From assembly GCA_963717425.1 (NCBI GenBank), contig OY970335.1, positions 1,777,226 through 1,841,225 of the forward strand: DNA of 64,000 nt. Reading direction: 5' to 3'. Of the stretch, positions 16,833-53,903 are shown one piece after another. A program made the translations under genes and the position numbers. Below the pieces are notes generated by a model, which made no database searches, was not told the DNA's origin, and was given only the letters and a program-made list of their open reading frames with translations. This DNA comes from Vulcanimicrobiota bacterium (lineage in GTDB: Bacteria > Vulcanimicrobiota > Vulcanimicrobiia > Vulcanimicrobiales > Vulcanimicrobiaceae). Position 1 is the stretch's first letter; the number at the start of each line of letters is the position of its first letter.

Positions 16833-17357
16833 GTGAGCCAAGTCATGCTGACCGGGGAGCGCTGCCGAGTAAGGCGATATCGCGTCGAGGATGCCGATGC
16901 GCTCTGCGCGGTCGCGGACGATTTCCTCGTTGCGCGTTGGATGACGCGAGCTTTTCCGCATCCGTATACGCGAGCGGACGCCGATTTTTGGGTTAACGCC
17001 GCCTCGAGCGATATGCGCCAGCGCTACTTCGCGATCGAGGTGGATGGGGTGTTGGCCGGCGGCATCGGCGTCGAGCCGTACAGAGGCGAGCGAAGCGGGG
17101 TGGCCGCATTTGGATATTGGTTGGGCCGGCGCTACTGGGGGCGCGGTATCGGAACCGATGCGGCGCGAATGTTTTCGGAGCATGCGCTCGCGAGCGGAAA
17201 GCTGCACCGCCTGGAAGCCTCGGTGTTCGCACAGAACGTCGCCTCGGGGAGAGTGCTGGAAAAGTGTGGCTTCGTATTGGAGGCGCGATTACGCGACTAC
17301 TATGTGGATCGGCACGCCGCGATATGCGACGCATTGCTGTTCGCACGGCTAGCCTGA
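16833..17357 (+). CDS. GNAT family N-acetyltransferase (RimJ/RimL-like).
   Basis: 174 aa. GYWLGRRYWGRGIGTDAARMF is a typical acetyl-CoA-binding Q/RxxGxG/A motif, followed by N.AS.RVLEKCGF. Confidence 0.85.
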   Translation: MSQVMLTGERCRVRRYRVEDADALCAVADDFLVARWMTRAFPHPYTRADADFWVNAASSDMRQRYFAIEVDGVLAGGIGVEPYRGERSGVAAFGYWLGRRYWGRGIGTDAARMFSEHALASGKLHRLEASVFAQNVASGRVLEKCGFVLEARLRDYYVDRHAAICDALLFARLA

Positions 17358-17397
17358 CGGACCCAAACCAAATGGCTTTCCTGAGGGTTGAAATGAC

Positions 17398-28022: not shown

Positions 28023-28116
28023 GGGAGTGTACGGGTCTGGTGGCCCGCACGGTCTTCAAAATCGCTGAGGTCGTCGCAAGGCGACTGGTAGGTTCGATTC
28101 CTACACGCTCCCGCCA
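28023..28116 (+). tRNA. selC: tRNA-Sec (anticodon TCA) with encoded CCA.
   Basis: Folded by hand. 8-bp acceptor stem (GGGAGTGT/ACGCTCCC with one G-U). 6-bp D stem (CGGGTC/GGCCCG) with the 4-nt loop TGGT. Anticodon loop CTTCAAA. Long variable arm (GTCGTC-GCAA-GGCGAC). 5-bp T stem (GTAGG/CCTAC) with a TTCGATT loop. This is the bacterial 8/5 tRNA-Sec architecture. The anticodon stem pairs imperfectly in my fold. Confidence 0.85.
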
Positions 28117-34286: not shown

Positions 34287-34732
34287 GACTGCAGCGCTCC
34301 GAGATGGAGCGCGTGCAGGGTCGCATCGACTGTCTCCCACGGAAGGTGAAAGCCGGCCGCCTTCAGCGCTCGCTGTGCCGCGGTCACATCGGCCTTGGTG
34401 AAGCCATAGGGCCAGCGGCTCGGGTCCGAGTTGCGCATCGGCCAATTCGGGTGAGCCGTGCCCTCGTACTCATTGATGAAGACCATCGACCGATAGCCCG
34501 AGGGTTTAGTAGCGCGGATAATCTCCTTGGCACGCTTGGGGATGTTCGGGAATCCGAAGCGCGCGCAGCGGTCGCACTCCAGACCCTCTTGCTCGACCAC
34601 GACCGCGCGCTCTTTCTCGATCCTTGTGCGACAGCGGAGAACGCACCATTCACAGTACAGGCGTCCGCGAACGTGATAGAGCGTCACGGGGAGCCGATAG
34701 GTGGGTTTTCGGGCCCGCATCTCAGAGTCCAA
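34283..34732 (-). CDS. Hypothetical Cys-rich protein.
   Basis: ORF coupled to both neighbours. Contains CEWCVLRC...CDRC, a possible zinc finger. No family recognised. The start is 34732 or 34720. Confidence 0.5.
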   Translation of the reverse strand: MDSEMRARKPTYRLPVTLYHVRGRLYCEWCVLRCRTRIEKERAVVVEQEGLECDRCARFGFPNIPKRAKEIIRATKPSGYRSMVFINEYEGTAHPNWPMRNSDPSRWPYGFTKADVTAAQRALKAAGFHLPWETVDATLHALHLGALQS

Positions 34733-35696
34733 CGCGCTGTGCGGCGTTCATCTGCCAAATCGTTGCTGGTCGGGTGTAGCGCTGAACCATCGAAAGGCTC
34801 TTGTGCCCAGTTTGACGCGAGATCTCAAGTGCATCCACGCCCGCCAAGGCGGCCGATGTCGCGAAGCCTGCGCGCAACGAATGACCTGCGAACCGAGCAG
34901 GGTCGAGCCCAATGCGTTGCGCATGGCGCTTGACGATCAGGGCGACAGCTGCGCCTGTTAGGCGCGTCGGCGCAACGTTGCCGCTACGATCGACCGAACG
35001 AAACAGCGGACCGTCGACAATGCCCGAGAGGTCGAGCCAGGCTTTCATCGCGCCAGCGGGGCAGGTCACCGGATTCGACCCGTTAGGAACCCCGATCAGA
35101 CGGCCTTCGCCTTCCTGATCCGTCTTCGACCGACGTAAAGTGACCTCGAGACCGTCAGCTACGAACCGGACGTCGCCGCGGTCGAGGGAAACCAGCTCGG
35201 ATCGGCGGAACGCGCCGGCGAATCCGAGCAACAAGAGCGCACGATCGCGGAGGTCGATCATCGCTTCGGTCAACGGTTGCAGCATCCGTCGAAGGTCGGC
35301 AGTTAGAATCGCATCTTTTCGGTCTTGCGTCACGCCCAGCGCGCGGCGAATGCCTGCCCAGACCTCGACCACTCGCGGGTGGGTAAATGGGCTTGGAAGG
35401 CCGCCTTTTCGGTGTTCTTGTCCGATCGCTGCGATGCGCCGGGCGATTGTAGCGAGCTTGTACTCTCGTGCGAGCTCGGTTAGGTACAACACCACCGCCT
35501 GTGGCTGAGCCGGCAGCGGCGAAACGCCGTGGGCACGACACCAGGCTTGAAACTGCCGAAGGTCGGTACGATACGCGCGTCGAGTACTCTCGGCGTTGGA
35601 GGACTCGGCGAACGCCTCAGCCTCGTCTCGAAGACTCTCGAGATGCGCGAGCCCGGCCGACGGAGCCGGAAGTATGGGGACCAACGCGGTGCTCAT
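34722..35696 (-). CDS. Tyrosine recombinase, XerC/XerD-like.
   Basis: 324 aa with an N-terminal SAM-like domain (TRRAYRTDLRQFQAWC). The catalytic region has LLLLGFAGAFRRSEL, GHSLRAGFATSAA and GHKSLSMVQRYTR. Confidence 0.9.
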   Translation of the reverse strand: MSTALVPILPAPSAGLAHLESLRDEAEAFAESSNAESTRRAYRTDLRQFQAWCRAHGVSPLPAQPQAVVLYLTELAREYKLATIARRIAAIGQEHRKGGLPSPFTHPRVVEVWAGIRRALGVTQDRKDAILTADLRRMLQPLTEAMIDLRDRALLLLGFAGAFRRSELVSLDRGDVRFVADGLEVTLRRSKTDQEGEGRLIGVPNGSNPVTCPAGAMKAWLDLSGIVDGPLFRSVDRSGNVAPTRLTGAAVALIVKRHAQRIGLDPARFAGHSLRAGFATSAALAGVDALEISRQTGHKSLSMVQRYTRPATIWQMNAAQRVGL

Positions 35697-36868: not shown

Positions 36869-37387
36869 TCAAGCCGCGTTCTCAAAGTGCTGCTCCAAAA
36901 GCTCGAACATGGTTGGATGCAAGGCGCGAAGGCGTTCGCGGCTTACCCGAGGCCATGCCGAGGCTTCGGAGTTTGCTCCGCACCAAGCGCGAAAACACTC
37001 AGCGAAGAATTCGTCCACTCCGGTCGCCGCGTAAGGCGTCACGAAACTGCGTGCCTCCGCGAAGGCCTTGCGAATGGTAGGATCGATTCCGGAAAAGTAG
37101 ATGCCGCTGCCAAACGCGCAATCTATCGCGTGCCCGTACTCGTGTACAACGGTCATCGGATCGAGGCACCGAAGGTAGACCGTACGCTCTTCCACGACGA
37201 ATAGCCCGGCCGGTGGCGCCGGCCAAGCGTCAACGTCGATTTGCAGACGCGAAAGAGTGGATGAGCGATCCTTGTATAGCTCGCCCGGTCCGAGCGCTGC
37301 GATCGAGCAGTCCGCTCGCGCGAAGAGCGCTTGCGCATGGGGAGGAACGTGTTCCTTCAGGATGCGGGAAATCTTGGTATCCATCAC
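36869..37387 (-). CDS. Zinc metallopeptidase domain protein (ArdC C-terminal/MtfA-ATLF-like).
   Basis: HEYGHAID (HExxH) plus a downstream EFFAECF motif. The start overlaps the stop of the ArdC-N-like gene. Confidence 0.7.
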   Translation of the reverse strand: MMDTKISRILKEHVPPHAQALFARADCSIAALGPGELYKDRSSTLSRLQIDVDAWPAPPAGLFVVEERTVYLRCLDPMTVVHEYGHAIDCAFGSGIYFSGIDPTIRKAFAEARSFVTPYAATGVDEFFAECFRAWCGANSEASAWPRVSRERLRALHPTMFELLEQHFENAA

Positions 37388-37671
37388 GCCACGCCTTCCC
37401 TCGGAAGCGCGTCGGTCTGCGCGATTGCGAAGACGGTATAGCCGCGCGGACCCTTGAGCCTGTGCCCCTTGCAGTCAATCTTGTCGCTTTCGACGATTTT
37501 TACGATGCGGCAGCCGTGCTCGCCCTTGCGAACGCACCGGCCAATTGAAAGCGCTTGCCTGAAGGTGACGAATTCCGGGGCGTAACCATTGGCGGCCGCG
37601 TACGCCGAGAGGGCGAGATGGTTCTTGCCTGCGTACGGTTCGCGCGTAATGTGATTGATAGCGTCTTGCAT
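37384..37671 (-). CDS. ArdC N-terminal-like ssDNA-binding domain protein (DUF1738-like).
   Basis: YAGKNHLALSAYAAANGYAPEFVTFRQALSIGRCVRKGEHGCRIV matches the N-domain pattern of ArdC antirestriction proteins. Confidence 0.65.
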   Translation of the reverse strand: MQDAINHITREPYAGKNHLALSAYAAANGYAPEFVTFRQALSIGRCVRKGEHGCRIVKIVESDKIDCKGHRLKGPRGYTVFAIAQTDALPREGVA

Positions 37672-37703
37672 AGTGCCTGCTGTTCCGCTTGAAACGTTGA
37701 AAT

Positions 37704-37746
37704 GTTACTGTAACATGAGTATAGCACGGTTACTGTGACGAATCAA
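37704..37746 (-). promoter_or_regulatory. Sigma70-type promoter with a candidate operator pair.
   Basis: Read on the minus strand: TTGATT (37746-37741), a 17-nt spacer, then TATACT preceded by TGC (37726-37718). The palindrome GTTACTGTAAC (37704-37714) lies just downstream of the -10, and the near-copy GTTACTGTGAC (37729-37739) lies in the spacer. Confidence 0.6.
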
Positions 37747-38112
37747 TAAATGTTTACGACCGATTCTTTACGGGCTGTTTGCCGATCTCCTAACGCATTG
37801 GCGCAAGCATGGAACGCGCGCGCATCAACGTTGATCCCGAGACGTACGGGCGCTTCGAAGACATTTACTATTATTTGGCTGCCGGGTGCCTCCGCTTATG
37901 ATGGCGAGACGGCGGAGTACATGATCGGCGCGAAATGATTGAAACAGCGGTTTCTCGATGCGGAGACAACTGCGGGTCTCTTACCCGCTGCGAGTCAAGC
38001 GCGCAGACGAACATATGGCTCGGACCTCGGCGAGACGCTTGCGCGGCCTTTCGCTAGTGAGAATGGCTATTATCGCTGGCGGGGCGTTCCGCGCTTTCGA
38101 ATATTACTTCCG

Positions 38113-41100
38113 CTAGGAGGACTGAATAGCGATCTGCTCAAGAGAGCCTAATCGATCGGGCACGCCAATCACGACGACATGCTTCAGTCTAACCCAGTCG
38201 AATAACGAAGTTCTTAGCACCCGACCGCCATTGAGCCAACCTGGGTCATTGTGAAGAAATGGATGTGCGAACACAATTCTGTGGTCCTTCGAAGAGGCTA
38301 TCGCATGGTGAGGACCGGAGCCGGTGAAGGTGTATGTGCCGTCGATCCGCGCCAGAGACGCCACCGCTGCTTCATAATCTACCTGTCGACCGGGTAACGA
38401 TTCTCCCTTCAAGAGGTGTACAAAGTCTAGGGCAAGACGCCAATCCAATAGTGGGTGCTTTTGGCGATTGGCGTAGCTACGTAGGCAGCGATAGCATGAA
38501 GAGTCACAACGATGCTGCGTGGCATCTTCGAACTTCTCGCCAAAAGTTTGGCCGAGCATGTCGGCCAACAGCGATTCAAAAAACCGTGGGTCGCCGATTT
38601 GCTCGGAAAAGCCGGCGCCATTCTCAAGTTCATCGGCAAGAAAGACGAACGCTCGTGGCCTTCTATTCTCATCGATCTCCTGCCAAAGGCCCTGCTCAAG
38701 CTCATGTGGATCGAGGTCCATTTTTGCGGTAGCTGCGGTCGCTATCAAAGCGGCCAATGACGTCCACGCGGCGCGGCGTGCGGGACTTGTCGGAGCGAGA
38801 TCGTAGGACCGCCGAAGGCGATTGCTCGCGCCTATCACGAGAACGTCGGTGCTGGTCTTGCACATCAGCGCTACATCGGAAAGGGGCTGTACGTACTCGG
38901 CCTTTTGCCATTCGAGGCGGCGAGTCTCGTCCTCATCTAGGATCCCGGGTTGACCGAGCGCGGACACGAATGTAAACGCGGCGCCGCCATTATCATTAAC
39001 AACATACACCATACCGTGACCCGTCCGAAGCTCCGCCTCGATGCATGGCTCTCCGGACGCGGGTACCGGCGCTCCGGTTAAACGTGCGTTGCCGCCTCTT
39101 GCGACGAACTCAGTCCCCCACTCATATGTTTGGGGTTCGTCCGAGTAATCGGTTCGGAATCCCAGTGGTTCAACCAGTGTGATCGGTTCGAAGGAGCCTT
39201 CGTTGCAGTATCTACACGGACGAAATGAGGTGTCATCATTTTCGGCTATCTTGCCACAGCTGACACAAACGTCTCTTACCTCTCGATTCCGGTATGGTTT
39301 GGTTATCGGTTGAAACGCTGGATCGTAAGCTACAAGCCCGATAGATCGATGGATCGTTTTGTCTCGAACGATCTCGGCTCCCGGCGCGAACTCGGCCACC
39401 GCCATTTTGAGCTGCCGTGATATCGCAGTTTCATTAGGTGGCCACACATCCTGATCTCTTCGGCTTGGGCCTCGCACATACAGCGGGCGCACTCGTGTGG
39501 GAAAGCCGAACAGGGGTAGGATACCAGCGTAGGCGAGCTCGCGACTCAGCTGAGCCCGACGTGTTATTGCCGGCTCTTCCGCCACCTCGATAGTATGCTC
39601 AACGAATTCATCGATCTCTGCGATGAGAGGTTGCTGCAGATAGGACAAGAGAGTCTGACTGTCGACACCTGTGCGATTTGACAGCCTTTCGGCTATTGCG
39701 GCAATGGTAGGAGATTGGGCGAGAAACTGACTAACGAAATCTTTATAGTAATGCCACTCTTCAAGCGTTGCGAACGACCCATGCGCCGTCGTGTCTGGCG
39801 AATCGTCGATGTCTTCGAGGTCGTCGAGAGCGACGGTCGGGCGTGGCATAATAGTCGATGCCTCATGAAACGCCCAGTACAGAGCCTCTTGTGCGGCAAC
39901 ACGCCTTGCGATACGTTGCGGGTCTCGTACGAGTTTTGGGGGCGGCGGGACATCACCAGTAATGCTCGACTGATTTGCAAAGTAGTGATCGTCGTGGCTA
40001 CGGCTACGGCAGACAGTCAAAGAGATCGCAATGGTTCTGCCTGCGCGCCCGGCTCTACCTACGCGCTGCTGGTAGTTCTGTCGCATCGGCGGCACGTTTG
40101 CCAGCATAACAGTCTGCAGAGTCCCGATGTCGATGCCCGCCTCCATCGTCGTGGTAACGCTCAGTACGTCAATGCCGTCGAAATCGAGATTTTCATCAGC
40201 GAGCGCCACGCCGCGGAAAAGCCTTTGGCGCTGCTGTGCGTCGCTCAATGGCGTCTGACCCGAAAGCTCCTCGGTGTGGAGGCGGGACATGTCACGTTCT
40301 TGAGCAACGAACGCATAATAGTCTTCTGACCGATGTTCGAACTGTTGCTCAGTCAAACGAAACCCACACGTTATGCAAATCTCCCCATAGGCACTGAGAT
40401 GACGTCGTGAGCAACGACCGCACTTCCACTGAGAACCACCGGGCGGCGCGAAGGCGAGGAGTCCCGCCTGGATGTACATTCCAGAAACGAGTATATCCGA
40501 TCGCTCAAGTATGTTATAGAGTTCGTACCCGACGGAATTCCAATCTGGCCGATCTAATGCTCTGGCTACGTGTCTCGCGTAGCGTTTTGCGTCGCCCCAA
40601 AGGCGATAATTTCCCGTACGCTCTGGCTTGTTCTTAGGGCGGCGCAACTCTTCAAAACGGCGCATCCCGATTAGTACCTGAAGCATGCCTTCTGCAAATG
40701 GCAGTATTTCTGGGCTCCCGCGTAGCGAAGTAGCAGGAACGATTCGAGCGAGACCGATATTTTGAAAGTCGCGACGCGCGCCGGAGCCAGCCAAGTCGGC
40801 TATCTCGTTACGGAGCCTCGTCCGAATAGCAGTCACGAGCTCAAGAGCACCTTCATCTAGGCGCGCTTCGTCTATGGTGTAGTGCTCAAAAGCATCCCTG
40901 CGCCACAGATGGTACCACGGCCGCTCTTGCGTGCCTACATCGTAGGTTTGGAGGGAACGATCGATTCCCGCCGGGTTCGTATGTGCCCGGGAAACCAGGG
41001 CACTCTCGACAGACTCCCGCAGCAATCTGAATGGCAGCCCGGTCGTAAAGCGACTGATCTTCTGTCTAATTTCCTCTGCTGCGGTCGCAGCTATAAGATC

Positions 41101-43677
41101 GGGAGTCTGCTCTAGCGCCAATACTTCTGCCGCCAGCGCGCTGTGCCTTGAGTAGAACTCGTCTGCGAGCCTCGCAGTGCTCAAATCAAGTCTTTCTCGT
41201 CGCGCACGACGTACGAACGCATCGAGGCGCTCGATGTCCATGCGTACGTCAAATAACCGACTTAGAATGGCCTGTCGGATCAAATCCTTCCAGTGGCCTG
41301 ACTCGAGATCTGCTCCCAGGGTCGCAGCAGCATTCCTGCTATCAGAGAACGCGATCAGCTGGCGGAGCTGCGCAAACCCATCACTCTGGTTCGCCTGTGA
41401 CACTCGTTCCAGCAAGGCATCGGCCAGTATCTGAGTAGCCTTGTGGAGACCAGTCGCTGAATCACGAATCACGTTGTTCCTAAAACGGCGCCGATCAGCG
41501 AGGCCGACGCGGTCTCCCGGAATTCTCAGTGCCTGGTTATAACCGTCGTCACCACAAGCCGGACAGTGAATGGGGTAATGCGGAAGCGATCTGCGGAACG
41601 CGGAGACTTGCTCAAAAACGCGTCCTCGGTCTCGGGGGGCGCGACGGTATCGCGGGCGGATGTCATAGATAAAGAATGGTGCATTTGTTGCACCGAGGGT
41701 TTGTGTGTCCAGTAGACCTGTCATTGGGTCAAAATTGGTTGGGAAGAAGCCAATCTCTAGTTGAACGTTAGCTCCGTCGTCGGTGCGATCATCGATTTCG
41801 AGATTTTCGCTCTCGGGCCGTTTCCCCATGGAAGGCCAAAGTACCGAATACGTCGCGATAGTGCGTCGCTGCTCTTTCTGATCGCCTGCAATTTGCCTCG
41901 AATCAATTGCAACGGCAAAGTGATGCTCGTCGTGCGGATCTTCCCCTGCGCGAATCGCCCAACCACTTATAAGTTGCTCGCCGCAGGTTTCACAGTAGAG
42001 CAGGTGCAGGATGCGGCCGCCACATTCGCACTCGAAGCGCGGTTCGGCGTAAAAGCGCCCAACATTCCGATCATCGTCGGTTTCGGACACACGGTCGCAC
42101 AGCACGTTCGTGCACACCCATCCTCCCGGGACCGTACGCACGAAGAGATGCGCCCTGGAGGGCAGCATCGGAACGTCGATCTGCAGGCGCTCGTCGCGCG
42201 TTCGCAATGCCTCTAGAAGCCCCGACAGAGCTATGCTACCATTCGGGACGTCGCCGAAGGCAGCGTCCTGCAATTGGGTCCATGACGCGGGACGCGGTTG
42301 ATCGGCACCGCCGGCGCGCGTCGACGCGTCCAAGGCGGCTTCAATTACTCCCGCGCTTTCCAAGGCTAGGTCCAATCGATCAGCACCCAGGGAGCGCGCC
42401 AGACGAAAGGCGTCCTTATCTCGGTCGAATTCGGCAAAGCTCGCTGCGGTATCCCGCAGGATGGTCGACTCTGCGGGGCTGTGGAGAGGAACAGAAGCGC
42501 AAGTCTCAAAGCTGCTTCCAGGCGCACCAAAGAACGTTTCGAGGAATGTCTCAGTGTCGCGTTCCGCTCCGAGGGATGCGCTGGTAGCGAGTATCCGGAG
42601 CTGTGGCGAAGTGGGGTCCAGGCCAAAGCGGCTCAGCACATTACGCAGTAGCATCGCGACTTCGCTCCCCATTGTGCCGCGATATGTGTGTAATTCGTCG
42701 ACGACCAATGTGAACACGTGGTCCGGATTCTGGACCAACCACTCGGCAGTCGCTGCGAACATGCCAGCTTCTCGCTGACGTAACATCATGATATTTAACA
42801 TCGCGTAGTTCGTGATCATGATATCCGGCGGGTGCGCGATCATGTCCCAACGACCACGCATCTCGGCTCCATCTAAGCGCTGGACGTAGGTGTTGGATAT
42901 TCCCGCATCGATCGTCGCCTGTTGTTGGCGAAGCCATTTGCGATACCGCCGCTCTGAAGCTCCGCGTTCCGCGACCACGTCTCCCGGAACGTCTCCTGGA
43001 ACCGGTGTCCGTCCAGTGTACCGCCCAAAATATATCCGATTATTATTTAGATGTGACCGGTACCACGCACGAGCATAGTCAGAATCCAATGCCTCTCGCA
43101 TTCGTCTAATCTGATCGTCTACCAAGGCATTCATCGGGTAGAGAATCAATGCCCGAACTGCAGCGTGACGCGCTTCGCCCATCCTCTGTGCCCGAAAGCG
43201 ACGATTACCCGTCCACCATTGCGTGTCGCTGTCATTTGGGGCCGCCCAGGGTCGCCGGATGGCCTCAGCCGCAATGTTTGCGACGATTGGGAATAGGAAC
43301 GCTTCGGTCTTTCCTGACCCGGTACCGGATCGCACTAGTGCGTTTCGCCTGTCTGAAGCCCCCATCCCGAAGAACGCCCGAAAGGCTTTGCCCTGATGCA
43401 GAAAAGGCCGACCGACGAGGTCCGAAAACAGTCCGGGTTGGATCAGGGTGGCGATATCTGAACCCGGCAATACTGAGTCCACTAGCTCTGCAATCGTTAA
43501 GTCGTCAGACTGATAGCGGGGGATGAGCTCTATCAGGGGCTCACCCGAAACGGCTCCCGGCCGTTCTAGCTCAACACGGCGCTCCCGGGCCACCGCTGAA
43601 CTCTTGAGTGCAAATGCCGTATCATAATAACGTAGAAAATCGCTCAAAAGGTCTTTCTGAAGCCGTAGGGGATTCAC
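38113..43677 (-). CDS. Giant DEAD/DEAH-box superfamily-2 helicase fused to a C-terminal DUF1998 (MrfA-type zinc-binding) domain; Druantia DruE-like.
   Basis: 1854 aa. Motif [13 protein letters not shown] (nt 43306-43326). Motif [13 protein letters not shown]. Motif [11 protein letters not shown]. Motifs [16 protein letters not shown]...[12 protein letters not shown]-terminal [25 protein letters not shown] (near nt 38470-38514). Several inserted CxxC zinc ribbons. The GTG start overlaps the upstream TAG (TAGTG). Confidence 0.9.
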
Positions 43678-44633
43678 TATGAACCTCCCGATTTGGCGAT
43701 CGGCTTTAGCGCCGGCAACTCATCGAGGGCGCTGAGCAGCTTCATCGCGATTATCCTAGCTATTCGTGCCGATACGCCGTCGTAGCAAGCGTAGCTCCTA
43801 TCGCCGAAAGCCTCACGATGGACCCCAAGAAAGCGTGCGCCACAGAAATGCAAAACGCGCTCAGCGAGAATTGGTATTGGCACACGAGCGTCGACGGCGA
43901 GTCGGCCGGCACCGTAACGTAGGAATCGCAATCCGGTCCGGCCGGCTGCGTACGCAAGAGCCAACTCCAGCTCAATGCGGCGTGCGCCTCGGTAGTCCAC
44001 ATAATAGTATTCGGCTGCAGAAAACTGTCTTCTTACGCGCAGCACCTGGAAATTAAGTTCAGAGTCGGCCCGGTCCGCCGCAGGGTCAAATGTTAATGCA
44101 ATCGGGTCCAAGAAATGGACATCGCCGTCACCTATAGCATCCGTCAAGCCGATCAATGGTCTTGAGTAAATGATCGAACCGAGCTGGGGCAGAGCGGAAA
44201 GGAGCGCCCAACCGGCGTCTAGCGAAGAGCGCTCGATTCGAAAGTATTCCGGCATTTGCTCAAGAGACGCTATGTCAGCGCCTTCCCCAGCCAGAATCTC
44301 CGATCGTGTGTACGAAATATTTCTTGTGACGATTGCGGCGTTGGCCGCGATTACAAAACCGTTCCGACCAAGTAAGACTGAGCGACTATCGTCGATTAGA
44401 CCGACGCCCAACAGCCGTCCTGGAACGACACGAATGATGGTCAAGGGCGGTACGCTCCACGAGCGGTTCCCGAGCCAGTCGAACTCTACGAGGCCCCTGG
44501 CGGCCAACGCGCGTGCCGCAAAATATTCATGGAGATTCAGGCCCGTAATGTCCTCAACTGCCCGTTTGAAAGTATGCCAGCTGCCGGCGCCCGTTCCTGC
44601 GAGAAACGACAGAAGCGCATCGCCATTCAGCAT
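43677..44633 (-). CDS. Hypothetical protein, middle gene of the helicase operon (318 aa).
   Basis: ATG 44633 overlaps the upstream TAA by 1 nt (TAATG), and its TAG overlaps the helicase GTG (TAGTG). No family or catalytic motif recognised. Confidence 0.65.
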
Positions 44634-46510
44634 TAGAGTAATAGCCCGCCGATAACAATCACCACTCGGCAATTCATGTATTCGTTGGTCTGGGCTGCGC
44701 CCGGGCTTGTAGTAGGGATAGCGATGCCACGAGCACGGCAGATGTCGAAGCCCTCGCAATCGTAGGGATCCATGCTCGATGTGACTGACCGAAGCGTCAG
44801 GCTAAAGGACTTACGGACACCGAGGACCTGCACAAAATGCATCCCCGGGGAAAGGTTAAATGGCAACCCATATTCTTTTCGACGAATTGCTGGTTCGGGG
44901 AGCATCCCGTCGTCGAGTGTCACACTTGCTTCCTCGATAGTAGGATGATCAAAAAAGATTTGCGGCGGCGTGGGCTGAAAGTATTCCGTGCCAACTCGCA
45001 GGCCCCGGCGAAACGTTACTCGAGCGCGATCTGGCGCCAAGAGATCCTCGAGTGCTGCGGGAATCGCTTCCCGCTCTGCGCGAGGTGCCCGTGCAGTGAC
45101 GATCGCAAGCTGCGGGGCCCCGTAACAATCACGGATCGCACTGTTCGCCCCCGAAATTGAGGCGAACGCTGCGCGGAGCGTTTCGGCAGTCTCTCGCGAA
45201 CAAAGCACGGCACAAAGGTCTCCAGCTCGTAGTTGGGTAGTCGCGATCCAACCTGTTCCATAGTTCGCGAATGTCACCACGTCATCCACAGATACCAGGC
45301 CTTTAGTGCCATTTGCTAATTCGTACATTATCGCGCCTTCATCCCATAGAAAGGACGTGGTGTCGGCGTCTTGCCAATCGTCCCCACCGATCCGACGTAC
45401 TTGAACGGACAGCTTCCACGGCAGCGCACCAATGTTCGCTCGGAGCACCAGGCGCTTTTCGAACGTTGTCCGATTACGATGTCGAGATGGCAGAGCCGCG
45501 ACGCGCCCGATGGCGTCTGCGATCGGGCTTATACGTTCCCCTTTTTGAGTCGAAATGTGCGATGACGCGCGCTCGGCTGGCCCACTAGTAATTCCCAAAG
45601 GATCGTGAGAAGCACGAAGCCCTCTTTCGGCGAGCTTTCGGTGCACAGAAGGCATGACCGTATCCTGAGGGTCGCAGCGATCCAGAAACCACCGCACGTA
45701 CTCCGTTTCGACGAGGTCGACGAACCCCTCGAAGAGGTGGCCCTCAGCGTGGACGAGTTCCAGCGTGTGTTCGAGAGCGTGAGAAAAAGCGTAGTCTCCG
45801 GGGTGCTGTAGCTCGTCGAGCATCATGTCGCGAATATCGCTCCGTGTCAGCTCGCGTCGACCCGCGCAGCGATGATCGAAGTAAAAGGCGAGCTGACGCC
45901 TCGAAGAAGCGCTGAGCAATACCTGAACTCGCGCTCGCCAAACATACTTTCCACCAAATGCACTATTGACGAGTAGGAGGCGCCCACGTCGACCCCCGCA
46001 ATTCACCTCAAGATAGTCTCCAAGCTCACGATAAAAGGACGTTGCATCAGAGAAGTGTGGGACATACGGAGTATCTCCCAGACCGAGCAAGTGTCCGAGC
46101 TGACGATGGAAGTATGCGCGCCGTCCTCCTTCGATCGCGTCGCCACTTTGTGAAGCCGCCAATGAAAAAACCGCTAATAATCCGACGTAATATGGAGGAT
46201 CGCGGTCCGCGACAGAGCGGCGTAACCAAGGGTGCCACCAGATGAATGGGTCGGCGTCGTGATGACGGATCAGCGCGCATATACTTTCCTTGAAGTTTTC
46301 AGGCGAGCGACCCATTTCCGTCGCGACCGAACGTAACTCACCGTCATCGAAGGACAGGATCCGGACAGCACCTGTGTCGGTTATAGGGAAGTAGCGCTGG
46401 AATATGCGATCATTCCACTCAAAGTAATCGGCGGCGTGGTCTGAATCGACGTCCGTTGCGGAACTCGGTTGGAGCGGCATCCCGTCGCGATTGGTCGGAC
46501 CAAGCGCCAT
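44633..46510 (-). CDS. Hypothetical protein, first gene of the helicase operon (625 aa).
   Basis: Long ORF with ordinary amino-acid composition, coupled to the downstream gene. No family or motif recognised. Confidence 0.7.
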   Translation of the reverse strand: MALGPTNRDGMPLQPSSATDVDSDHAADYFEWNDRIFQRYFPITDTGAVRILSFDDGELRSVATEMGRSPENFKESICALIRHHDADPFIWWHPWLRRSVADRDPPYYVGLLAVFSLAASQSGDAIEGGRRAYFHRQLGHLLGLGDTPYVPHFSDATSFYRELGDYLEVNCGGRRGRLLLVNSAFGGKYVWRARVQVLLSASSRRQLAFYFDHRCAGRRELTRSDIRDMMLDELQHPGDYAFSHALEHTLELVHAEGHLFEGFVDLVETEYVRWFLDRCDPQDTVMPSVHRKLAERGLRASHDPLGITSGPAERASSHISTQKGERISPIADAIGRVAALPSRHRNRTTFEKRLVLRANIGALPWKLSVQVRRIGGDDWQDADTTSFLWDEGAIMYELANGTKGLVSVDDVVTFANYGTGWIATTQLRAGDLCAVLCSRETAETLRAAFASISGANSAIRDCYGAPQLAIVTARAPRAEREAIPAALEDLLAPDRARVTFRRGLRVGTEYFQPTPPQIFFDHPTIEEASVTLDDGMLPEPAIRRKEYGLPFNLSPGMHFVQVLGVRKSFSLTLRSVTSSMDPYDCEGFDICRARGIAIPTTSPGAAQTNEYMNCRVVIVIGGLLL

Positions 46511-46969
46511 TACGATGCAGCGGGCCGGGCGCGTCTCATAGCCATGCTGAACGAGCCCACGTAGGAACGGGGACTATAAGGAGTGACTCGGATCGTGTTC
46601 GCCACATCCGAGCAGTTTGAAATCGATCAGCCGCCAAGCGCCAGTTATCTTATAACCTCAAAATCCGGACGCCTTCATCCGGTCGGTTGGCGCCGTCTCG
46701 ATGTGATGGGGGGCCGGCATACAATCCGACCCCAAGTGGTCTCCCGCCTAGGTAATTTGCGCTTATGGTCGCACGCTCGGGTCTTGACGCAGGGACTACA
46801 GTGCAGTTCCTCGCAGCAGCGCTCCGTTACCCAGGGACAACCCGTCGGGATGCTAGAACCGAATCAAAGCAAGCTGGCTTTCGCTAGGCGACCGGCTCCT
46901 TTCCTTCAGTCCGTTTCGTTTTGAAAAGGGGAACGATGCTACCGTGCATTCGTAGTAGGTTGAAATCCG

Positions 46970-49045
46970 ATGACTAGGTTCGAACTGAAGACGACTCTCT
47001 CGGTGCTTGAGGACCTCGGAATCAACAACTACACCAACGCCGCCGCCGTTCTCTCAGAGATCGTGGCGAATGCTTGGGACGCTGACGCTTCCAACGTCTT
47101 CGTTACGGTCAGCGGCAGCGGCGCAAGCCGCGTGATGACGATCGAAGATGACGGCGTCGGCATGACTGCTCTCGAGATCAATGAACGCTATTTGACCGTT
47201 GGCTACAAACGGCGCGATGCGCCGGGCGGAGGGCGAACTCCGTTGGGACGCGCAGTGATGGGGCGTAAAGGGATCGGCAAACTAGCCGTATTTTCGATCG
47301 CTTCGAAGGTCGAAGTGCACACCGTTAAGGGAAGGGCGCGGAGTGCATTCTCGATGGACCTAGCAGATCTTCGAGCGGACGCCAAAGCACAACGGCCGTA
47401 TTATCCCAAGGATCTCGCCTGTGTTAAGAACTTGACACGCGGTACGAGAATCGTTCTGCGCGGTATCAATGCATCTCTGACCCTCACCGACCGCTTCCTG
47501 CGACGGCATCTTTCCCGTCGCTTCACCATCATTGATGGCGCTCACGGCTTCTCTATTACAGTCAACGGGAAGCCTTTGACGCTTGCGGATCGGGAGTATT
47601 ATCCGAAGCTACAGTACATCTGGCATTATCACATGCCCGTCGTGCCGACTCTCGCTACAGCGGCGGAACAGGAAGAGGCACGCAACTTCCAAGTCTCGGT
47701 CCCCAATAAGAGCGGCAACGCGACTAAGTATGCGATATCCGGCTGGATCGCTACGGTAAAACAGCGTTCCCAACTGGCATCGTCGGATGACGACAACCTC
47801 AATCGCTTGTCTTTGGTCGTGCGCGGTAAACTCGCACACGAAAACTTTCTCGAGGAGTTCAGTGAAGCAGGGGTGTATGCAACTTATCTCATCGGAGAGA
47901 TGAACGCGGATTTCCTCGATATTGACGACAAGCCGGACATTGCAACGCCGAGCCGCCAGCGAATCGTCGAGAGCGATCCCCGTTACGTGGCTCTCAAGAA
48001 GTTTGTCCAGGCCGAACTGAAACACATCGAGTCGTCTTGGACCGCAATTCGCAACCAGACTGGACTTGAGTCCGCCCTGGAGATCCCAGCGATTTTTCAA
48101 TGGTACCAAGGCTTACAGCCCCGCGAGCAGATGATCGCGACAAAGCTATTGGGTCGGGTCAACACCTTACCGATTGAAGCCGACGAGCGACGAACGCTAT
48201 TTAAGCAGGCCGTTCTCTCGTTCGAGGTCTATAGGGTCAAGAGCAATCTCGACGCCCTGGAATCGATGTCATCTGACCAACTAGCTGCAGTCGGAGAGAT
48301 CTTCAAGAGTATCGATGACATCGAGGCAGCTCTTTACCTGCAGCTGGTTCGACAGAGGATCGGGATAATCGACGCCTTCGATCGCATGGTAGGTGAGAAT
48401 CAGAAGGAAGTCTTCCTGCAAAGCCACGTTTTTAACCACCTCTGGCTATTAGACACGGCTTGGGAACACGCCACTGAGAACGCTGTCATGGAAAAGAGCG
48501 TTCTCAAGATGCTCAAGGACGCAACAGGGAAGCCCACCAGTTCACTTTCAAGAGAGGTCGCTAGATCTCGCGTCGATATCCGATACAGGCTCGTCAGCGG
48601 TCGGCACGTGATCATCGAGCTCAAGCGCGCCAACAGGGTAATGAACACCGCCGACCTGCTGAAGCAAGTACAAAAATATGCGGCCGGAATGCGGAAGCTA
48701 TTGGCGGATAGCGGTGGCGCTTACGAACCATTCGAAATCATCGTACTGGTGGGGAAGCGGTTGAGCGATTGGAGCAACGATCCTGGGGCGGAGGAAGTCT
48801 CGCGGAAAACCTTTGCTCCGCATCAGACCCGAATTATGATGTACGACGAGGTGCTACGAAACGCGAAGAGTATGTATGGGGAGTTCGTCGCCAGAGAGAA
48901 GGAAGCATCAAAAATTGGGGCTATTCTCGAAAGCATCGACGAATCGGATATTCCCAAATCCGGTATTCTGGTACCAGGAGCCAATAAGAAGAGCCTTCCT
49001 CAGACTTCGGCGATGAAGCCGATCGTGCGCAAGAAACGACGATGA
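46970..49045 (+). CDS. GHKL/MORC-like ATPase (HATPase_c_3) fused to a C-terminal PD-(D/E)xK nuclease-like module; candidate ATP-dependent restriction component.
   Basis: Bergerat-fold motifs SEIVANAWDA, TIEDDGVGM and GRKGIGKLAVFS. C-terminal VDIRYRL...HVIIELKR (D at 48576-48578, E-L-K at 48617-48625). The stop overlaps the vsr start (ATGA at 49042-49045). Confidence 0.8.
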   Translation: MTRFELKTTLSVLEDLGINNYTNAAAVLSEIVANAWDADASNVFVTVSGSGASRVMTIEDDGVGMTALEINERYLTVGYKRRDAPGGGRTPLGRAVMGRKGIGKLAVFSIASKVEVHTVKGRARSAFSMDLADLRADAKAQRPYYPKDLACVKNLTRGTRIVLRGINASLTLTDRFLRRHLSRRFTIIDGAHGFSITVNGKPLTLADREYYPKLQYIWHYHMPVVPTLATAAEQEEARNFQVSVPNKSGNATKYAISGWIATVKQRSQLASSDDDNLNRLSLVVRGKLAHENFLEEFSEAGVYATYLIGEMNADFLDIDDKPDIATPSRQRIVESDPRYVALKKFVQAELKHIESSWTAIRNQTGLESALEIPAIFQWYQGLQPREQMIATKLLGRVNTLPIEADERRTLFKQAVLSFEVYRVKSNLDALESMSSDQLAAVGEIFKSIDDIEAALYLQLVRQRIGIIDAFDRMVGENQKEVFLQSHVFNHLWLLDTAWEHATENAVMEKSVLKMLKDATGKPTSSLSREVARSRVDIRYRLVSGRHVIIELKRANRVMNTADLLKQVQKYAAGMRKLLADSGGAYEPFEIIVLVGKRLSDWSNDPGAEEVSRKTFAPHQTRIMMYDEVLRNAKSMYGEFVAREKEASKIGAILESIDESDIPKSGILVPGANKKSLPQTSAMKPIVRKKRR

Positions 49046-49431
49046 GGCGTTCCTCGTCCGAACGCATGCGTCGAGTTGGCCGACGCGATACTGACTGCGA
49101 GTTGCGCCTTCGGTCTCGTTTGCATGCGATTGGATTTCGGTATCGAGTTGACTATTGCGTCGAAGGTTTGCGCACGAAACCTGATATCGCATTCGTCCGG
49201 GCAAGGGTCGCTATCTTCATCGACGGTTGCTACTGGCACGGATGTCCGGAGCATGGGACAATCTCTAAGACAAACGTCGGATTTTGGCGAGCGAAGATCG
49301 AGGGCAATCGAGAGCGGGATCGGCGCTTGACGAAGGACCTGACTCGGGCAGGCTGGCGAGTCGTGCGGTTGTGGTCACACGAATCTCTTGGCACCATGCT
49401 GGAACGAATTCGCGACGCATTGACGCGTTAG
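49042..49431 (+). CDS. vsr: Very-short-patch repair endonuclease.
   Basis: RMRRVGRRDTDCELRLRSRLHAIGFRYRV...KPDIAF...VAIFIDGCYWHGCPEHG...FWRAKIEGNRERDRR...GWRVVRLWSHE is collinear with E. coli Vsr as I remember it. Confidence 0.9.
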   Translation: MRRSSSERMRRVGRRDTDCELRLRSRLHAIGFRYRVDYCVEGLRTKPDIAFVRARVAIFIDGCYWHGCPEHGTISKTNVGFWRAKIEGNRERDRRLTKDLTRAGWRVVRLWSHESLGTMLERIRDALTR

Positions 49432-50576
49432 AATGCCATCACCTCCTCGTGGTGAAGCAAGTCTTCTAAGAACTGCGGGGGATAATGAAGATTGCTCCTC
49501 TCAAGACGCCCACGGAAGCCACGCGTCGCGCGCTCCGACAGCGGTGGCGGCTCTTGCGTCAGGAATCGCATGATCGGCGTCATTTCTAGGAGTACTGGAA
49601 AGGCACTGACCTCTATCGAGTAACGCTCTCCGCTGCGCCCCCAGGCTGCGAGCGGCCACGGCCCCGATTTCGGGAACCTCCTGCCGCGCAAATCGCGTTT
49701 GGTTTCGGGCACCCGACCAAGCCTCTTACCGATCCAGGAGGCAACTGGGACGCTGACGGCATTCCCGATCATCTTCCAGCGTTTGCGCTCAAACCTGGGA
49801 ATATCGCTCCCGATATCCGTCCAACCGATCGGGAAGCCTTGCAACGCCTCGGCATCCGCGATCTGCGGCATGACAATGGACCGTCGACGCCTCACCCAGA
49901 TCGCCGGGGGTGATGGAATGTGAATCCCGGAGCCGCTCTTCAGTGGGGGTACGGAATCATCAGCCCAACCTAGCCCGGCATTACCCTCGGTCCAATAGAA
50001 GCCGTGCGCCTGAACGTCATCGTGTCTAGGTGCATGTCCAACATCCTGGTCGAGTAGAATGCTTGGCGCAGAGTCGTCAAGCGATGCAACAAGAAGCCAA
50101 CGTTTCCGACGCTGCGGCAATCCGAATGCGGAAGTATCGACGATGCGATACGACCACGTGTATCTCATTGCCTCAAGCAAACGTGTGACATACGCAAGCG
50201 CTTTCCCGCGCTCAAGGTGAACGATGTTTTTGACGTTTTCCAAAACGATAAACGTGGGAAGGCGCTTCCTCGGGGTCTTAGCGATGAGCGCGAACATCCG
50301 CCGCAGGAGATCACGGCTGCCGTGCAAGCCGCTCGTCGGACCCACCTGACTGAAAGTCGAACAAGGAAAACCCGCGAGAATTGCATCTGACCGAGGTAGC
50401 TGTGTAATATCGAAAATATCCCCCGCAATGTCGCTCGTGAACCGATGCCGAAGGACCGATCGGCATGCATCATCGATCTCGTTAAGAAAAACCGCGTGAT
50501 GCCCGGCATTCTGAAATCCGAGTTCCAAGCCGCCGATTCCGGAAAAGAGACCTACGACTTGCAATCTATCCTCCAT
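49428..50576 (-). CDS. dcm: DNA (cytosine-5)-methyltransferase.
   Basis: Start at ATG 50576 (MEDRLQVVGLFSGIGGLELGF, motif I). GFPCSTFS (motif IV), VLENVKN (VI), QRRKRWLLVA (VIII), GNAVSVPV (X). The 131 codons upstream in the ORF are Arg/Ser/Pro-rich and probably not translated. The stop overlaps the vsr stop convergently (TTAG). Confidence 0.93.
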   Translation of the reverse strand: MEDRLQVVGLFSGIGGLELGFQNAGHHAVFLNEIDDACRSVLRHRFTSDIAGDIFDITQLPRSDAILAGFPCSTFSQVGPTSGLHGSRDLLRRMFALIAKTPRKRLPTFIVLENVKNIVHLERGKALAYVTRLLEAMRYTWSYRIVDTSAFGLPQRRKRWLLVASLDDSAPSILLDQDVGHAPRHDDVQAHGFYWTEGNAGLGWADDSVPPLKSGSGIHIPSPPAIWVRRRRSIVMPQIADAEALQGFPIGWTDIGSDIPRFERKRWKMIGNAVSVPVASWIGKRLGRVPETKRDLRGRRFPKSGPWPLAAWGRSGERYSIEVSAFPVLLEMTPIMRFLTQEPPPLSERATRGFRGRLERSNLHYPPQFLEDLLHHEEVMAF

Positions 50577-50680: not shown

Positions 50681-50968
50681 CGGCCTTGGCTGGGCCGCGT
50701 CGGGCTTCGCACGGGACTGAAATACGCCGAAGAAAGACAGCCCGGATCAGCCACGAATAGGGGCGCCGCGATGCTTCGTGCGAGTGACTGGGACTCTGTT
50801 GATCCGCGAAGCCTGCCGTCGTTCGGGACGCGCGCTCTCCAGGCGCCTTGCCCGTAGGCGTCCGCTCGCGGCCTCCCTGCGGGCCAGTCTCATACGATCT
50901 CGTGCTGGGGCTTCGGGGTACGGTCGGCGAAATGCGGGCCGCTTGTGAACACTGCAAACGGGAGCCCA

Positions 50969-51706
50969 ATGACGGCAGTCCGAGAAGTCTTCGATTCGAT
51001 AGCCTACTGCAAGAACGTTGCGCTGTGCCATCACGGGGGCGAATCGCACCCCTGCGCCACGATCGTTCGGTCGCAGCACGTTTCAGACGCCAATTTTCAA
51101 CTGCCAGAGCCGTGGCGCGGCCGGATCGACAAGGCGCGCATCCTATTCATAGGCTCCAACCCTTCGATCGGCGACGATCGGTACGCGCTTCAGTCTTCCC
51201 CTGAAACGCAGGTCTGGGAGTCACAGCATCTCGCATTCGGCGGCGGAAGCCGGCCATACGTCATAGACGGCATCAGGACGACTACGGCCACTGGGTCGCC
51301 CGACCACGTCGTACGCTATTGGTCGTCGATTCGGGCCAGGGCGCGCGAGTTGATCCCATGCGCGGTCCCGGGCGAGGACTACGCGATTTCTGAAGTCGTG
51401 CACTGCAAGTCCAAGGGCGAAGAGGGAGTCGCCGAAGCAGCCCAGACCTGCTATGCCATGCACATGTCGGCCGTGTTTTCGGTCGCGGCCGCGAAGGTCA
51501 TAATCGTGCTTGGCAAGTTCGCCAAGGAACAGCTGCTGGGTGCCGTGCCCGCTCCTTCGATTCCATCGCAGCTGGAGCTGGGAGGTTGGAAGCGGACCGT
51601 GCTCTTCTTGCCGCATCCCAACGCCAGAGGCGTACGGAAAGCCCTTGCAGCGCACTATGCCGGTGCGGACTTAGAGGCGGTCAAAGAGCTAATCGCGGCC
51701 CCTTGA
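50969..51706 (+). CDS. Uracil-DNA glycosylase superfamily protein (MUG/TDG- or family-4-like).
   Basis: ATG 50969 is preceded by GGGAG. ILFIGSNPSIGDD resembles the GINPG/GMNPG catalytic motif. FLPHPNARG resembles the HPS/NPSG C-terminal motif. An N-terminal Cys cluster is present (CKNVALCHHGGESHPC). Confidence 0.55.
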   Translation: MTAVREVFDSIAYCKNVALCHHGGESHPCATIVRSQHVSDANFQLPEPWRGRIDKARILFIGSNPSIGDDRYALQSSPETQVWESQHLAFGGGSRPYVIDGIRTTTATGSPDHVVRYWSSIRARARELIPCAVPGEDYAISEVVHCKSKGEEGVAEAAQTCYAMHMSAVFSVAAAKVIIVLGKFAKEQLLGAVPAPSIPSQLELGGWKRTVLFLPHPNARGVRKALAAHYAGADLEAVKELIAAP

Positions 51707-52609: not shown

Positions 52610-53857
52610 TTGCCGTTCCTGGACAACCCGAGCCGCCACGGTCTTGATCGAAATGCAGTCACACTACCTGTGATACCCCAAGGCCAGGACCCACGCGGAA
52701 ACGCTCACACTCCAGCATCGTCCGAGCCCGCGTACCTCTTAGAAACTCTTCGTATCATTGAAGCAGCCACCAATCACGATGCGGAGAAGCTGTCGATCTT
52801 CGTCGCGGCCCTCGTAAATAAGCTCCGCGAAAACGGCTTCGCTCACGCTGGGAAGCTTATCGAAAGAGCGTTTAACCGGTCGCGCGAGAGGCAGCTCTCC
52901 CCACAGTCATTGGGGCGCACAGTCGAAGGAGGGCTGCGGATTCCAGTTGACCCGGAGACTCACGTACCGCTAGCGGACGTCGAAACGCTTTCGGTAGACG
53001 ACTTGGGCTACGAAGCCGATCCGTTGACGTCGGCTAATACGTCTTCGTTCCTGTCCTTCGCGCGTAATCGGGGCAAGCTTCTCGCGAGTGGAATCTTCGT
53101 GCCGACGAATCTTCTGCTGCACGGGCCGCCTGGCTCCGGCAAAACGATTACTGCGAGATACGTCGCCGCCGCTCTCGGCCTGCCTATTATAACCGCCAGG
53201 ATGGATGCCGTTGTCTCCAGCTACTTGGGAAACACTGCAAAGAACATCCGCTACATTTTTGATGCAGCATCGTCGCAAAATGTCGTGCTGTTCCTGGATG
53301 AGCTTGATGCGATCGCGAAGGCCCGAGATGATGAGCACGAGCTTGGCGAACTAAAGCGCGTGGTAATAGCGCTGCTCCAAAACATCGACTCCGTGAACGG
53401 GAAGCTGATCCTGATTGCGGCGACTAATCACGAGCATCTTCTTGATCCGGCGATTTGGCGGAGGTTCCCGCACCGCGTCGGATTTCAGTCTTCCACGCTT
53501 GACTTTAGAAGGGCGCTGTTCGCGAGGTTTTCGACCGGGTTGCCGCCGGTCTGGTATGATGCCCTCGCACATGCCTCGCGTGGCCTAAGCGCCGGGGATA
53601 TACGCGAGATAACACAACGCGAGCAGATCAGCGCCATCATTGAAGATCGACTTATCCTTCCGGCCGCATTGCTGCGGAGCACGCTTGGCGTCGCTTCAAA
53701 GGGACCGGGCGGTTCGTACATGCCGATCGCGGATGTCGCCCGACGCGCAGCTTCCCGTGATAGTAAGTATTTTACTATTACTAGGCTGGCGAATCTACTT
53801 GGGGTTAGCCGCAGCAGGATCACAAGTTACCTTCGTAGGGCACGGCGTGCCAGATAA
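52610..53857 (+). CDS. AAA+ ATPase (classic AAA clade), IetA-like.
   Basis: LLLHGPPGSGKTITARYVA (Walker A), VVLFLDELDAI (Walker B), LIAATNHEHLLDPAIWRRF (sensor/Arg finger region). An S8 protease gene lies immediately downstream. The TTG start is uncertain. Confidence 0.85.
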   Translation: MPFLDNPSRHGLDRNAVTLPVIPQGQDPRGNAHTPASSEPAYLLETLRIIEAATNHDAEKLSIFVAALVNKLRENGFAHAGKLIERAFNRSRERQLSPQSLGRTVEGGLRIPVDPETHVPLADVETLSVDDLGYEADPLTSANTSSFLSFARNRGKLLASGIFVPTNLLLHGPPGSGKTITARYVAAALGLPIITARMDAVVSSYLGNTAKNIRYIFDAASSQNVVLFLDELDAIAKARDDEHELGELKRVVIALLQNIDSVNGKLILIAATNHEHLLDPAIWRRFPHRVGFQSSTLDFRRALFARFSTGLPPVWYDALAHASRGLSAGDIREITQREQISAIIEDRLILPAALLRSTLGVASKGPGGSYMPIADVARRAASRDSKYFTITRLANLLGVSRSRITSYLRRARRAR

Positions 53858-53903
53858 CTTTCAGCTCCCCATCCAAAGGGTGCTCAACCGCGACGGAGAC
53901 CGT

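Follow-up and report, generated by a model that had tools for sequence, protein, structure and literature searches.

Druantia type II is reportedly a DruM-DruF-DruG-DruE system, described by Doron et al. in 2018. Type IV, which consists of DruE, DruF and DruL, was named by Payne et al. in 2021 (PADLOC) from genomics alone, with 168 RefSeq instances in 11 phyla, and is defined as being without DruM (PMC8565338). Bell et al. (2025) renamed type II Druantia as Type IV CoCoNuT and ascribed an inactivated CnuB/McrB-like component to types I and II (PMC12458937). In the present work, we analyzed a stretch of 64,000 nucleotides (nt) from a Vulcanimicrobiota bacterium (the window), which carries a minus-strand cassette of three genes encoding a DruF-like protein of 625 amino acids (aa), a DruL-like protein of 318 aa and a DruE helicase of 1854 aa. 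Judged by homology, the locus belongs to the Druantia II/IV branch, which is already known, and is not an undescribed kind of system; what survives is the more modest claim of a divergent variant intermediate to types II and IV. We propose, with a probability of about 0.6, that it is a divergent type IV cassette working with an adjacent 5-methylcytosine (m5C) DNA methyltransferase (MTase) and a Vsr very-short-patch repair endonuclease, that is, a functionally type II-like, methylation-linked system.

The three-gene cassette and its Druantia relatives

The three genes (Table 1) are chained by one-nucleotide stop/start overlaps, as an earlier note on this DNA had read them; the list of open reading frames (ORFs) and the sequence agree. 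At the druF/druL junction (minus strand, CTCTAATGCTG), TAA and ATG have one base in common, 44633, and at the druL/druE junction (minus strand, TTCATAGTGAAT), TAG and GTG have one base in common, 43677; a GGGAGG Shine-Dalgarno motif lies 7 nt 5' of the druE GTG. The DruF-DruL-DruE order with overlaps of 1 or 4 nt was also found on the independent contigs L003, L004, L005, L006/L007 and L012, and in the canonical type IV locus L013 the order is kept, but the overlap is present at the first junction only. Across independent contigs, the cassette proteins share 25-82% identity. Because order and overlaps recur on independent contigs, the cassette is more than a chance arrangement, and the observations support one conserved unit of DruF, DruL and DruE genes. 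The earlier note's reading of the three genes as a unit is supported in this sense: they co-occur in L003-L007, L012 and L013. A scan of the locus for promoters and terminators was uninformative.

A very large superfamily 2 (SF2) helicase fused to DUF1998/MZB, the feature by which Druantia of any type is recognized, is present here as the 1854-aa protein. Helicase motifs I, II, III and VI are intact in its translation (GTGSGKT at residue 118, DELH at 327, SAS at 366 and QRVGRAGR at 1204), CxxC pairs occur at residues 562, 705, 1086/1101, 1471/1488 and 1728, and the C-terminal ...LLDW module (DUF1998/MZB) occupies residues 1722-1743. Pfam recognizes DEAD, Helicase_C and MZB (= DUF1998), the MZB match of 21.7 bits being slightly below the gathering score of 24.2. 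The complete SF2 motif set, the inserted zinc ribbons and the C-terminal DUF1998 module named in the earlier note were therefore all located, and from these features the protein can be classified as a YprA-like SF2 helicase with zinc-ribbon insertions and an MZB/DUF1998 module. Comparison with known systems relied on hmmscan against the PADLOC hidden Markov models, which gives model matches and not system calls under the PADLOC cut-offs and rules. The best match is DruE4 (1388 bits, residues 3-1807 on model positions 6-1775 of 1829), nearly equaled by a full-length match to DruE2 (1349 bits), and the DruE3 models match the helicase core only (224-373 bits). Among PDB sequences, the best solved relative is 9wae_A (E 1e-138), followed by 9tu7, the type III-A DruE of E. 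coli (E 4e-39); the YprA structure 6znp is a detectable relative as well, the score on YprA being 28 bits.

The C-terminal tail of DruE (~110 aa) is conserved inside the clade formed by the window cassette and its close relatives. In types I and II, this tail has been described as a degenerate Vsr (Bell et al., PMC12458937). An hhalign comparison of the tail with the Vsr alignment revealed no sequence similarity. Assignments to the DISARM, Dpd and BREX helicases were also rejected, the matches being confined to short stretches of the RecA domains.

The DruF-like protein matches the PADLOC models DruF2 and DruF4 at E 1e-13 over residues 28-274 only, and the best stretch covers ~36% of the DruF4 model. 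When the clade alignment A2 was compared by hhalign with the canonical DruF of L013 (709 aa), homology was found with 96.7% probability for the N-terminal ~200 residues only; the protein aligns over its full length with the DruF of L012 at 25% identity. Thus, a DruF homologue stands beside DruE, as in type IV. No match to canonical DruF was obtained for the beta-rich C-terminal half, which is either clade-specific or diverged past detection. No match was found in Pfam, NCBIfam or PHROGs, and a profile search of PDB sequences with the DruF alignment returned nothing. The AlphaFold2 (AF2) model, built from a 10-sequence alignment, is poor, with a predicted local distance difference test (pLDDT) of 57, and Foldseek gave nothing usable, since matches of such a query are meaningless. 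In this model, residues ~23-278 appear to form a helical N-terminal domain, which a disordered linker (~279-348) connects to a beta-rich C-terminal domain (~350-572).

For the DruL-like protein, the direct match to PADLOC DruL4 (E 2e-9) is restricted to a C-terminal stretch and covers ~19% of the model. Because this match is weak, the assignment was re-tested with a profile of nine close DruL-like sequences (alignment A1), used in a HMMER search of 1.84 billion representative proteins and in hhalign comparisons. The HMMER search yielded 62 relatives, nearly all of ~300 aa, and the remote relatives P0035, P0043 and P0030 match DruL4 end to end at E 1e-30 to 1e-40. When A1 was compared by hhalign with P0043, the canonical DruL of L013, residues 3-302 of the window protein were aligned with a probability of 97.2%. 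A DruL homologue therefore lies between DruF and DruE, again as in type IV, and the two partner proteins, which the earlier note had held to be unrecognizable and without any known motif, are both recognized by the PADLOC DruF and DruL models and by profile searches.

The AF2 model of DruL (30-sequence alignment) has a pLDDT of 92.5 and a predicted TM score (pTM) of 0.90. It begins with a winged-helix-like unit of three helices, after which come alpha/beta domains. Foldseek found no match to it in the PDB or BFVD at E<=0.001; the non-significant matches are local winged helix-turn-helix hits, and entries for PI-SceI, LAGLIDADG and WhiA recur at E>0.05 and TM<0.2. Pfam, NCBIfam and PHROGs contain no match, nor did the profile search of PDB sequences with the DruL alignment find one. 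In the model, residues 222-298 form a helix-strand-strand-helix-strand-strand-helix succession, for which PI-SceI, LAGLIDADG and WhiA are listed in both libraries; this segment may, as a weak lead, be a degenerate homing-endonuclease-like DNA-binding fold.

Relatives of DruL additionally align with the stretch ~710-1010 of the long DruF2 models (1011-1030 aa), and DruL can thus be regarded, on profile homology, as the counterpart of the C-terminal third of long type II DruF. Layouts in other bacteria display both states. An Alisedimentitalea plasmid has the canonical type II layout, in which a DruF of 1013 aa with C-terminal DruL homology precedes DruE, a 655-aa protein and dcm; in the Nostoc plasmid pC052_B, dcm, DruF, DruL and DruE follow one another on a single strand; and in a Calothrix plasmid, the DruF/DruL region is split elsewhere, into 565 and 449 aa. 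The fusion and fission of DruF and DruL therefore indicate that types II and IV are a continuum and that DruF-DruL is one functional unit. No P-loop or nuclease signature was detected in DruF or DruL with PADLOC, Pfam or NCBIfam, and their structure models contain no P-loop fold, the DruF model being of low confidence.

With type IV, the locus shares the three protein families, their order, the overlapping or closely spaced genes, the best DruE match (DruE4), full-length DruL homology by profile comparison and a homologous DruF N-terminal domain. It differs from canonical L013 (DruF4 217 bits, DruE4 1911 bits, DruL P0043 135 bits) in that DruF and DruL of this clade reach only 1e-13 and 2e-9 with partial coverage, in the unmatched C-terminal half of DruF, and in the orthologous m5C MTase and Vsr that accompany the clade in every informative locus. 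The type IV definition excludes DruM and DruG; since the MTase is outside the operon, the PADLOC rule might or might not count it. The likeness to type II lies in the nearly equal DruE2 and DruE4 scores, the homologous DruF, the long type II DruF that equals DruF and DruL fused, and an m5C methyltransferase associated by synteny. Unlike type II, the locus lacks DruG (PADLOC matches it to none of the three cassette proteins) and has its DruF split over two genes, and the MTase, which is of another m5C family and not of the DruM2 model family, is encoded outside the operon with Vsr as its partner. No match to McrB, CnuB or an AAA family was found for the cassette proteins in PADLOC, Pfam or NCBIfam, so that the component expected of type II/CoCoNuT is not seen. 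The new Druantia-like subtype or undescribed helicase system of the earlier note was too strong a claim, since DruF, DruL and DruE already constitute type IV, while its Druantia-family system built around a DruE helicase-DUF1998 fusion is borne out by the DruE4 score. Profiles essentially place all three genes in a defined subtype, the outcome under which that note would have called the system known; the partner assignments are nevertheless weak, and the linkage to MTase and Vsr falls outside the definition.

Two further systems can be compared. Class 2 DISARM (DrmA, DrmB, DrmC, DrmMII and DrmE) likewise combines a YprA-type helicase, DUF1998/MZB and an m5C methyltransferase, and a similar logic would apply to both, with self DNA marked by methylation and the helicase loading on single-stranded DNA (ssDNA) of the unmodified invader. 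Here, however, helicase and DUF1998 are fused in one protein, there is no DrmC phospholipase D (PLD) nuclease and no DrmE, and DruF and DruL are unrelated to Drm proteins. The DrmA models match only ~65 residues of the DruE RecA2 domain (E 2.6e-10), and no matches to DrmB or DrmC were found, so that the DISARM gene set is not present. Type III (DruH-DruE), whose mechanism was characterized in 2026 preprints, has a homologous DruE helicase core and is the one system from which ssDNA loading and 3'->5' unwinding are extrapolated below, but here DruH is absent, the partner proteins are others and a methylase is linked. In type III, the C-terminal region of DruE contains PLD nuclease domains (PMC12458937); the window DruE has no match to that region.

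The cytosine methyltransferase and Vsr linked to the cassette

The clade is rare and divergent, with ~10 relatives in soil metagenomes and in a metagenome-assembled genome of Candidatus Cybelea (Vulcanimicrobiota, formerly Eremiobacterota), where the three proteins (MGA8475014-16) are annotated as hypothetical, hypothetical and DEAD/DEAH helicase. A word-indexed search of 5.8 billion proteins returned 9-11 relatives of each partner protein, and when 185,579 GTDB species representatives were scanned with the alignments of DruL and of DruF, no locus of the clade could be confirmed. A scan of metagenomes contributed just L009 and L010; for locus searching, alignment A3 proved too divergent.

In the window, the MTase (Pfam DNA_methylase, E 1e-43) is most likely a protein of 382 aa rather than the 513-aa product of the longest ORF, because in the long ORF the Pfam domain begins only at residue 137 and because the gene is called with 382 aa in L001. 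It stands beside Vsr and a GHKL protein (Pfam HATPase_c_3, E 9e-19; PADLOC REase_II PDLC03419, 300 bits). An orthologous MTase was found within a few kb in every clade locus with enough flanking sequence (eight independent informative loci), and Vsr as well, except in L010, where the contig ends. The MTase orthologues adjoin the cassette in L003, L004, L005, L008, L010 and L012 (45-56% identity to the window MTase), and all clade MTases have their best PADLOC match in MTase_II PDLC03324. The Vsr orthologues stand beside the MTase in the same loci apart from L010 (47-52% identity), and the Vsr core motifs DI.F, GC.WH.C and HG are invariant (alignment A6). The connection between an m5C methylase and type II Druantia, a hunch of the earlier note, is strengthened by this presence in every informative locus.

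Five arrangements of MTase and Vsr were distinguished. They are upstream and divergent, with the GHKL restriction endonuclease (REase)-like gene, in the window, L001, L002 and L009; after HNH_2 in L003 and L004, where DruE is followed by HNH_2, Vsr and then MTase on the opposite strand; downstream in the order MTase, Vsr in L005, without an REase; downstream in the order Vsr, MTase in L012 (DruE 42%, DruL 33% and DruF 25% identity); and several kb upstream in the frameshifted L008, in which HNH_2 lies right before DruF. In L010, MTase follows DruE and the contig ends; L006 and L007 were left out as uninformative, the contig stopping 140 nt past DruE. Locus L005 is a clean HTH-DruF-DruL-DruE-MTase-Vsr insertion between housekeeping and flagellar genes (HTH, helix-turn-helix). 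The restriction partner changes from locus to locus: the GHKL gene is confined to window-type loci and is a lineage-specific accessory not conserved with the cassette, HNH_2 occurs in L003, L004, L008 and L009, and no REase is present in L005 and L012 or on the short L010 contig. No other neighbor is common to all clade loci. Since GHKL, HNH_2 or no such gene is present while MTase and Vsr stay, the methylase appears to be tied to the Druantia cassette and not to a particular REase. With only ~22-24% identity to the dcm of L017 and L018, the window MTase represents another m5C family; across types II and IV, cytosine methylases are frequent companions, but their family varies.

A gene of the uracil-DNA glycosylase (UDG) superfamily lies divergently from the MTase gene, and its product may be, with Vsr, a second enzyme handling deamination of cytosine or 5-methylcytosine. 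Its counterpart in L009 (2952-3713) is 72% identical, versus 98-99% for the flanking genes, which suggests a local replacement. Separately, L016 (429-6318) has an MvaI/BcnI-family restriction enzyme and an m5C methylase after its DruF-DruL pair; DruE is not visible on this 6.6-kb contig. The Alisedimentitalea type II locus (L018, 18394-20792) likewise ends in dcm and an MvaI/BcnI enzyme; there may be a recurrent partnership of DruF/DruL with restriction-modification (R-M) systems of the CCNGG type.

Proposed mechanism and competing explanations

We infer a defense activity with methylation-based discrimination of self and non-self, in which the MTase would mark host DNA at its target motif, as a proposed equivalent of DruM, and Vsr would repair the T:G mismatches that arise from 5-methylcytosine deamination. 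DruF and DruL may form a complex that senses or licenses targets, with the N-terminal winged-helix-like unit of DruL as the candidate DNA-binding part; such a complex is proposed because long type II DruF unites the two in a single chain and because their genes are translationally coupled in the window. Type III DruE binds ssDNA or 3' tails and unwinds 3'->5' (10.64898/2026.05.13.724758), engaging 3'-tailed DNA and replication intermediates (PMC13192584). By analogy, the window DruE, as an ATP-driven motor, would load on unmodified invader DNA where single-stranded stretches or 3' tails are exposed and would translocate 3'->5', dismantling replication or recombination intermediates and exposing the DNA to nucleases. 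As PADLOC, Pfam and NCBIfam revealed no active nuclease domain in any of the three cassette proteins, the DNA would have to be destroyed by an accessory or host nuclease, the candidates being the neighboring HNH_2 or GHKL restriction proteins in some loci, or host RecBCD. A bolder version, which we put forward tentatively and at somewhat less than even odds, is that m5C MTase, Vsr, DruF, DruL and DruE make up a Druantia subtype of five genes that depends on methylation, in which the methylase is obligatory for marking self DNA and DruF-DruL reads the modification to license DruE.

These proposals raise a key question: does the MTase belong to the Druantia system, or is the cassette a stand-alone three-gene type IV system, with the HATPase-Vsr-MTase block being an independent type II R-M system whose adjacency reflects co-transfer? 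Several observations speak for independence and so weigh against the methylation-linked system that we prefer. The window block is compact and resembles an ordinary type II R-M system; the MTase lies 2.9 kb upstream of the cassette, outside the operon, in a separate divergent block with its own REase-like gene and Vsr and with 4-nt overlaps, and it scores 358 bits on MTase_II (PDLC03324) versus 108 bits on DruM2. Restriction-like genes (HNH_2 or GHKL) stand beside the MTase in most loci, and type IV is by definition without DruM. The canonical type IV loci L013 and L014 have no MTase nearby (3.5 kb downstream), so that the association is not universal across the family. The weak and partial PADLOC matches of DruF and DruL, the unmatched C-terminal half of DruF, the lack of a detected nuclease domain and the lack of similarity between the DruE tail and Vsr also weigh against the preferred system, as do the small clade sample (~8 independent loci, several on short contigs) and the fact that no experiments on Druantia type II or IV were found in the literature searched. 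However, MTase and Vsr are kept in all informative loci even though position, orientation and REase partner change, and L005 and L012 have both without any REase (the short L010 contig shows the MTase only). Even where identity has fallen to 42% for DruE and 25% for DruF and the unrelated neighbors all differ, the linkage is kept, and in related type II and DruL-containing loci dcm is inside the operon. An independent R-M block is the main competing explanation and seems to us the less likely one.

Another important question is whether the cassette serves defense at all, or whether its YprA/MrfA-like helicase is the core of a module for DNA repair or for the upkeep of a mobile element, which might, for instance, process damaged or foreign DNA on behalf of the integrative element around it. 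The DNA-repair helicase YprA/MrfA is a detectable relative (6znp), the YprA family includes a repair branch (PMC12458937), and the locus sits on an integrase-bearing island. Yet DruE scores 1388 bits on DruE4 and only 28 bits on YprA, its partners are DruF and DruL, the neighbors are defense genes (IetAS and R-M), and the DruE-containing types I and III are experimentally validated defenses, all of which makes a repair or maintenance role very improbable. The methylation-linked type IV system remains our preferred reading, and the defense-island context is what supports the putative anti-phage function of the cassette.

The surrounding island and what the locus means

The operon lies in a lower-GC region downstream of tRNA-SeC, where the GC content falls from ~0.63 to ~0.55-0.58 from ~36 kb on. 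With an integrase directly after the tRNA gene and a second one further on (Table 1), the region looks like an integrative island inserted at a selC-type site; a search of the window for another copy of the 3' end of tRNA-SeC found none. IetA and IetS make up a complete IetAS defense system in the same island, and the further genes include an ArdC-N fragment, the GHKL-Vsr-MTase block, the UDG-family gene and an HNH protein. This is a typical integrative defense island, in agreement with the setting given in the earlier note. At the island edge, the RHS-repeat gene may encode a polymorphic toxin, and the leucine-rich-repeat gene its partner or immunity protein.

Table 1 Features of the window and their positions
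Feature	Position	Strand	Remarks
tRNA-SeC	28023-28116
Tyrosine integrase	28227-29447	(-)	directly after tRNA-SeC
Second tyrosine integrase	34722-35696	(-)	6 kb further on
ArdC-N fragment	37384-37671
druE gene	38113..43677	(-)	1854 aa, GTG start
druL-like gene	43677..44633	(-)	318 aa from ATG at 44633; longest ORF 43677-44759(-)
druF-like gene	44633..46510	(-)	625 aa, ATG start
Small ORF	46583-46924	(+)	113 aa (109 aa as called in L001); between druF and GHKL gene
GHKL (HATPase_c_3) restriction-enzyme-like protein	46970..49045	(+)	691 aa; overlaps Vsr by 4 nt
Vsr very-short-patch repair endonuclease	49042..49431	(+)	129 aa; Pfam Vsr E 5e-17
m5C DNA methyltransferase	49428..50576	(-)	382 aa; longest ORF to 50969
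UDG-superfamily gene	50945-51706	(+)	divergent from MTase gene
IetA, AAA ATPase	52610-53857	(+)	PADLOC 335 bits
IetS, subtilase	53640-56108	(+)	PADLOC 768 bits
Leucine-rich-repeat protein	58652-59536	(-)	294 aa; after RHS gene
RHS-repeat protein	59545-63924	(-)	1459 aa

The small ORF between druF and the GHKL gene has no match in Pfam or PHROGs. At the other end of the cassette, L009, a near-identical soil-metagenome copy, carries an HNH_2 gene (16635-17531) directly after DruE, like L003 and L004; the window has no HNH_2 after druE (37672-38112), and the ArdC-N fragment is there instead. Between L009 and the window, DruE is 95% identical, and DruF and DruL are 99% identical, which hints at recombination near the druE 3' end.

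The basic identity of the locus is not new; its value lies in the constant MTase-Vsr linkage and the split DruF/DruL, which give a handle on an uncharacterized branch of Druantia. Types II and IV are without experimental validation or mechanism, only type III having been dissected (2026). The fusion and fission of DruF and DruL are evidence for one unit and unify types II and IV, and DruL itself has a confident predicted structure with no known fold relative. Because the PADLOC models barely detect the clade, the number of type IV-like systems in Vulcanimicrobiota and other uncultured phyla is probably underestimated. With the conserved minimal set (MTase, Vsr, DruF, DruL and DruE), seen as the five-gene insertion in L005, the hypothesis that Druantia II/IV discriminates self by cytosine methylation can be put to a direct test. 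If the five-gene subtype is real, the whole Druantia II/IV branch would be an epigenetic self/non-self system analogous to DISARM, and this compact operon would be the place to test that idea.

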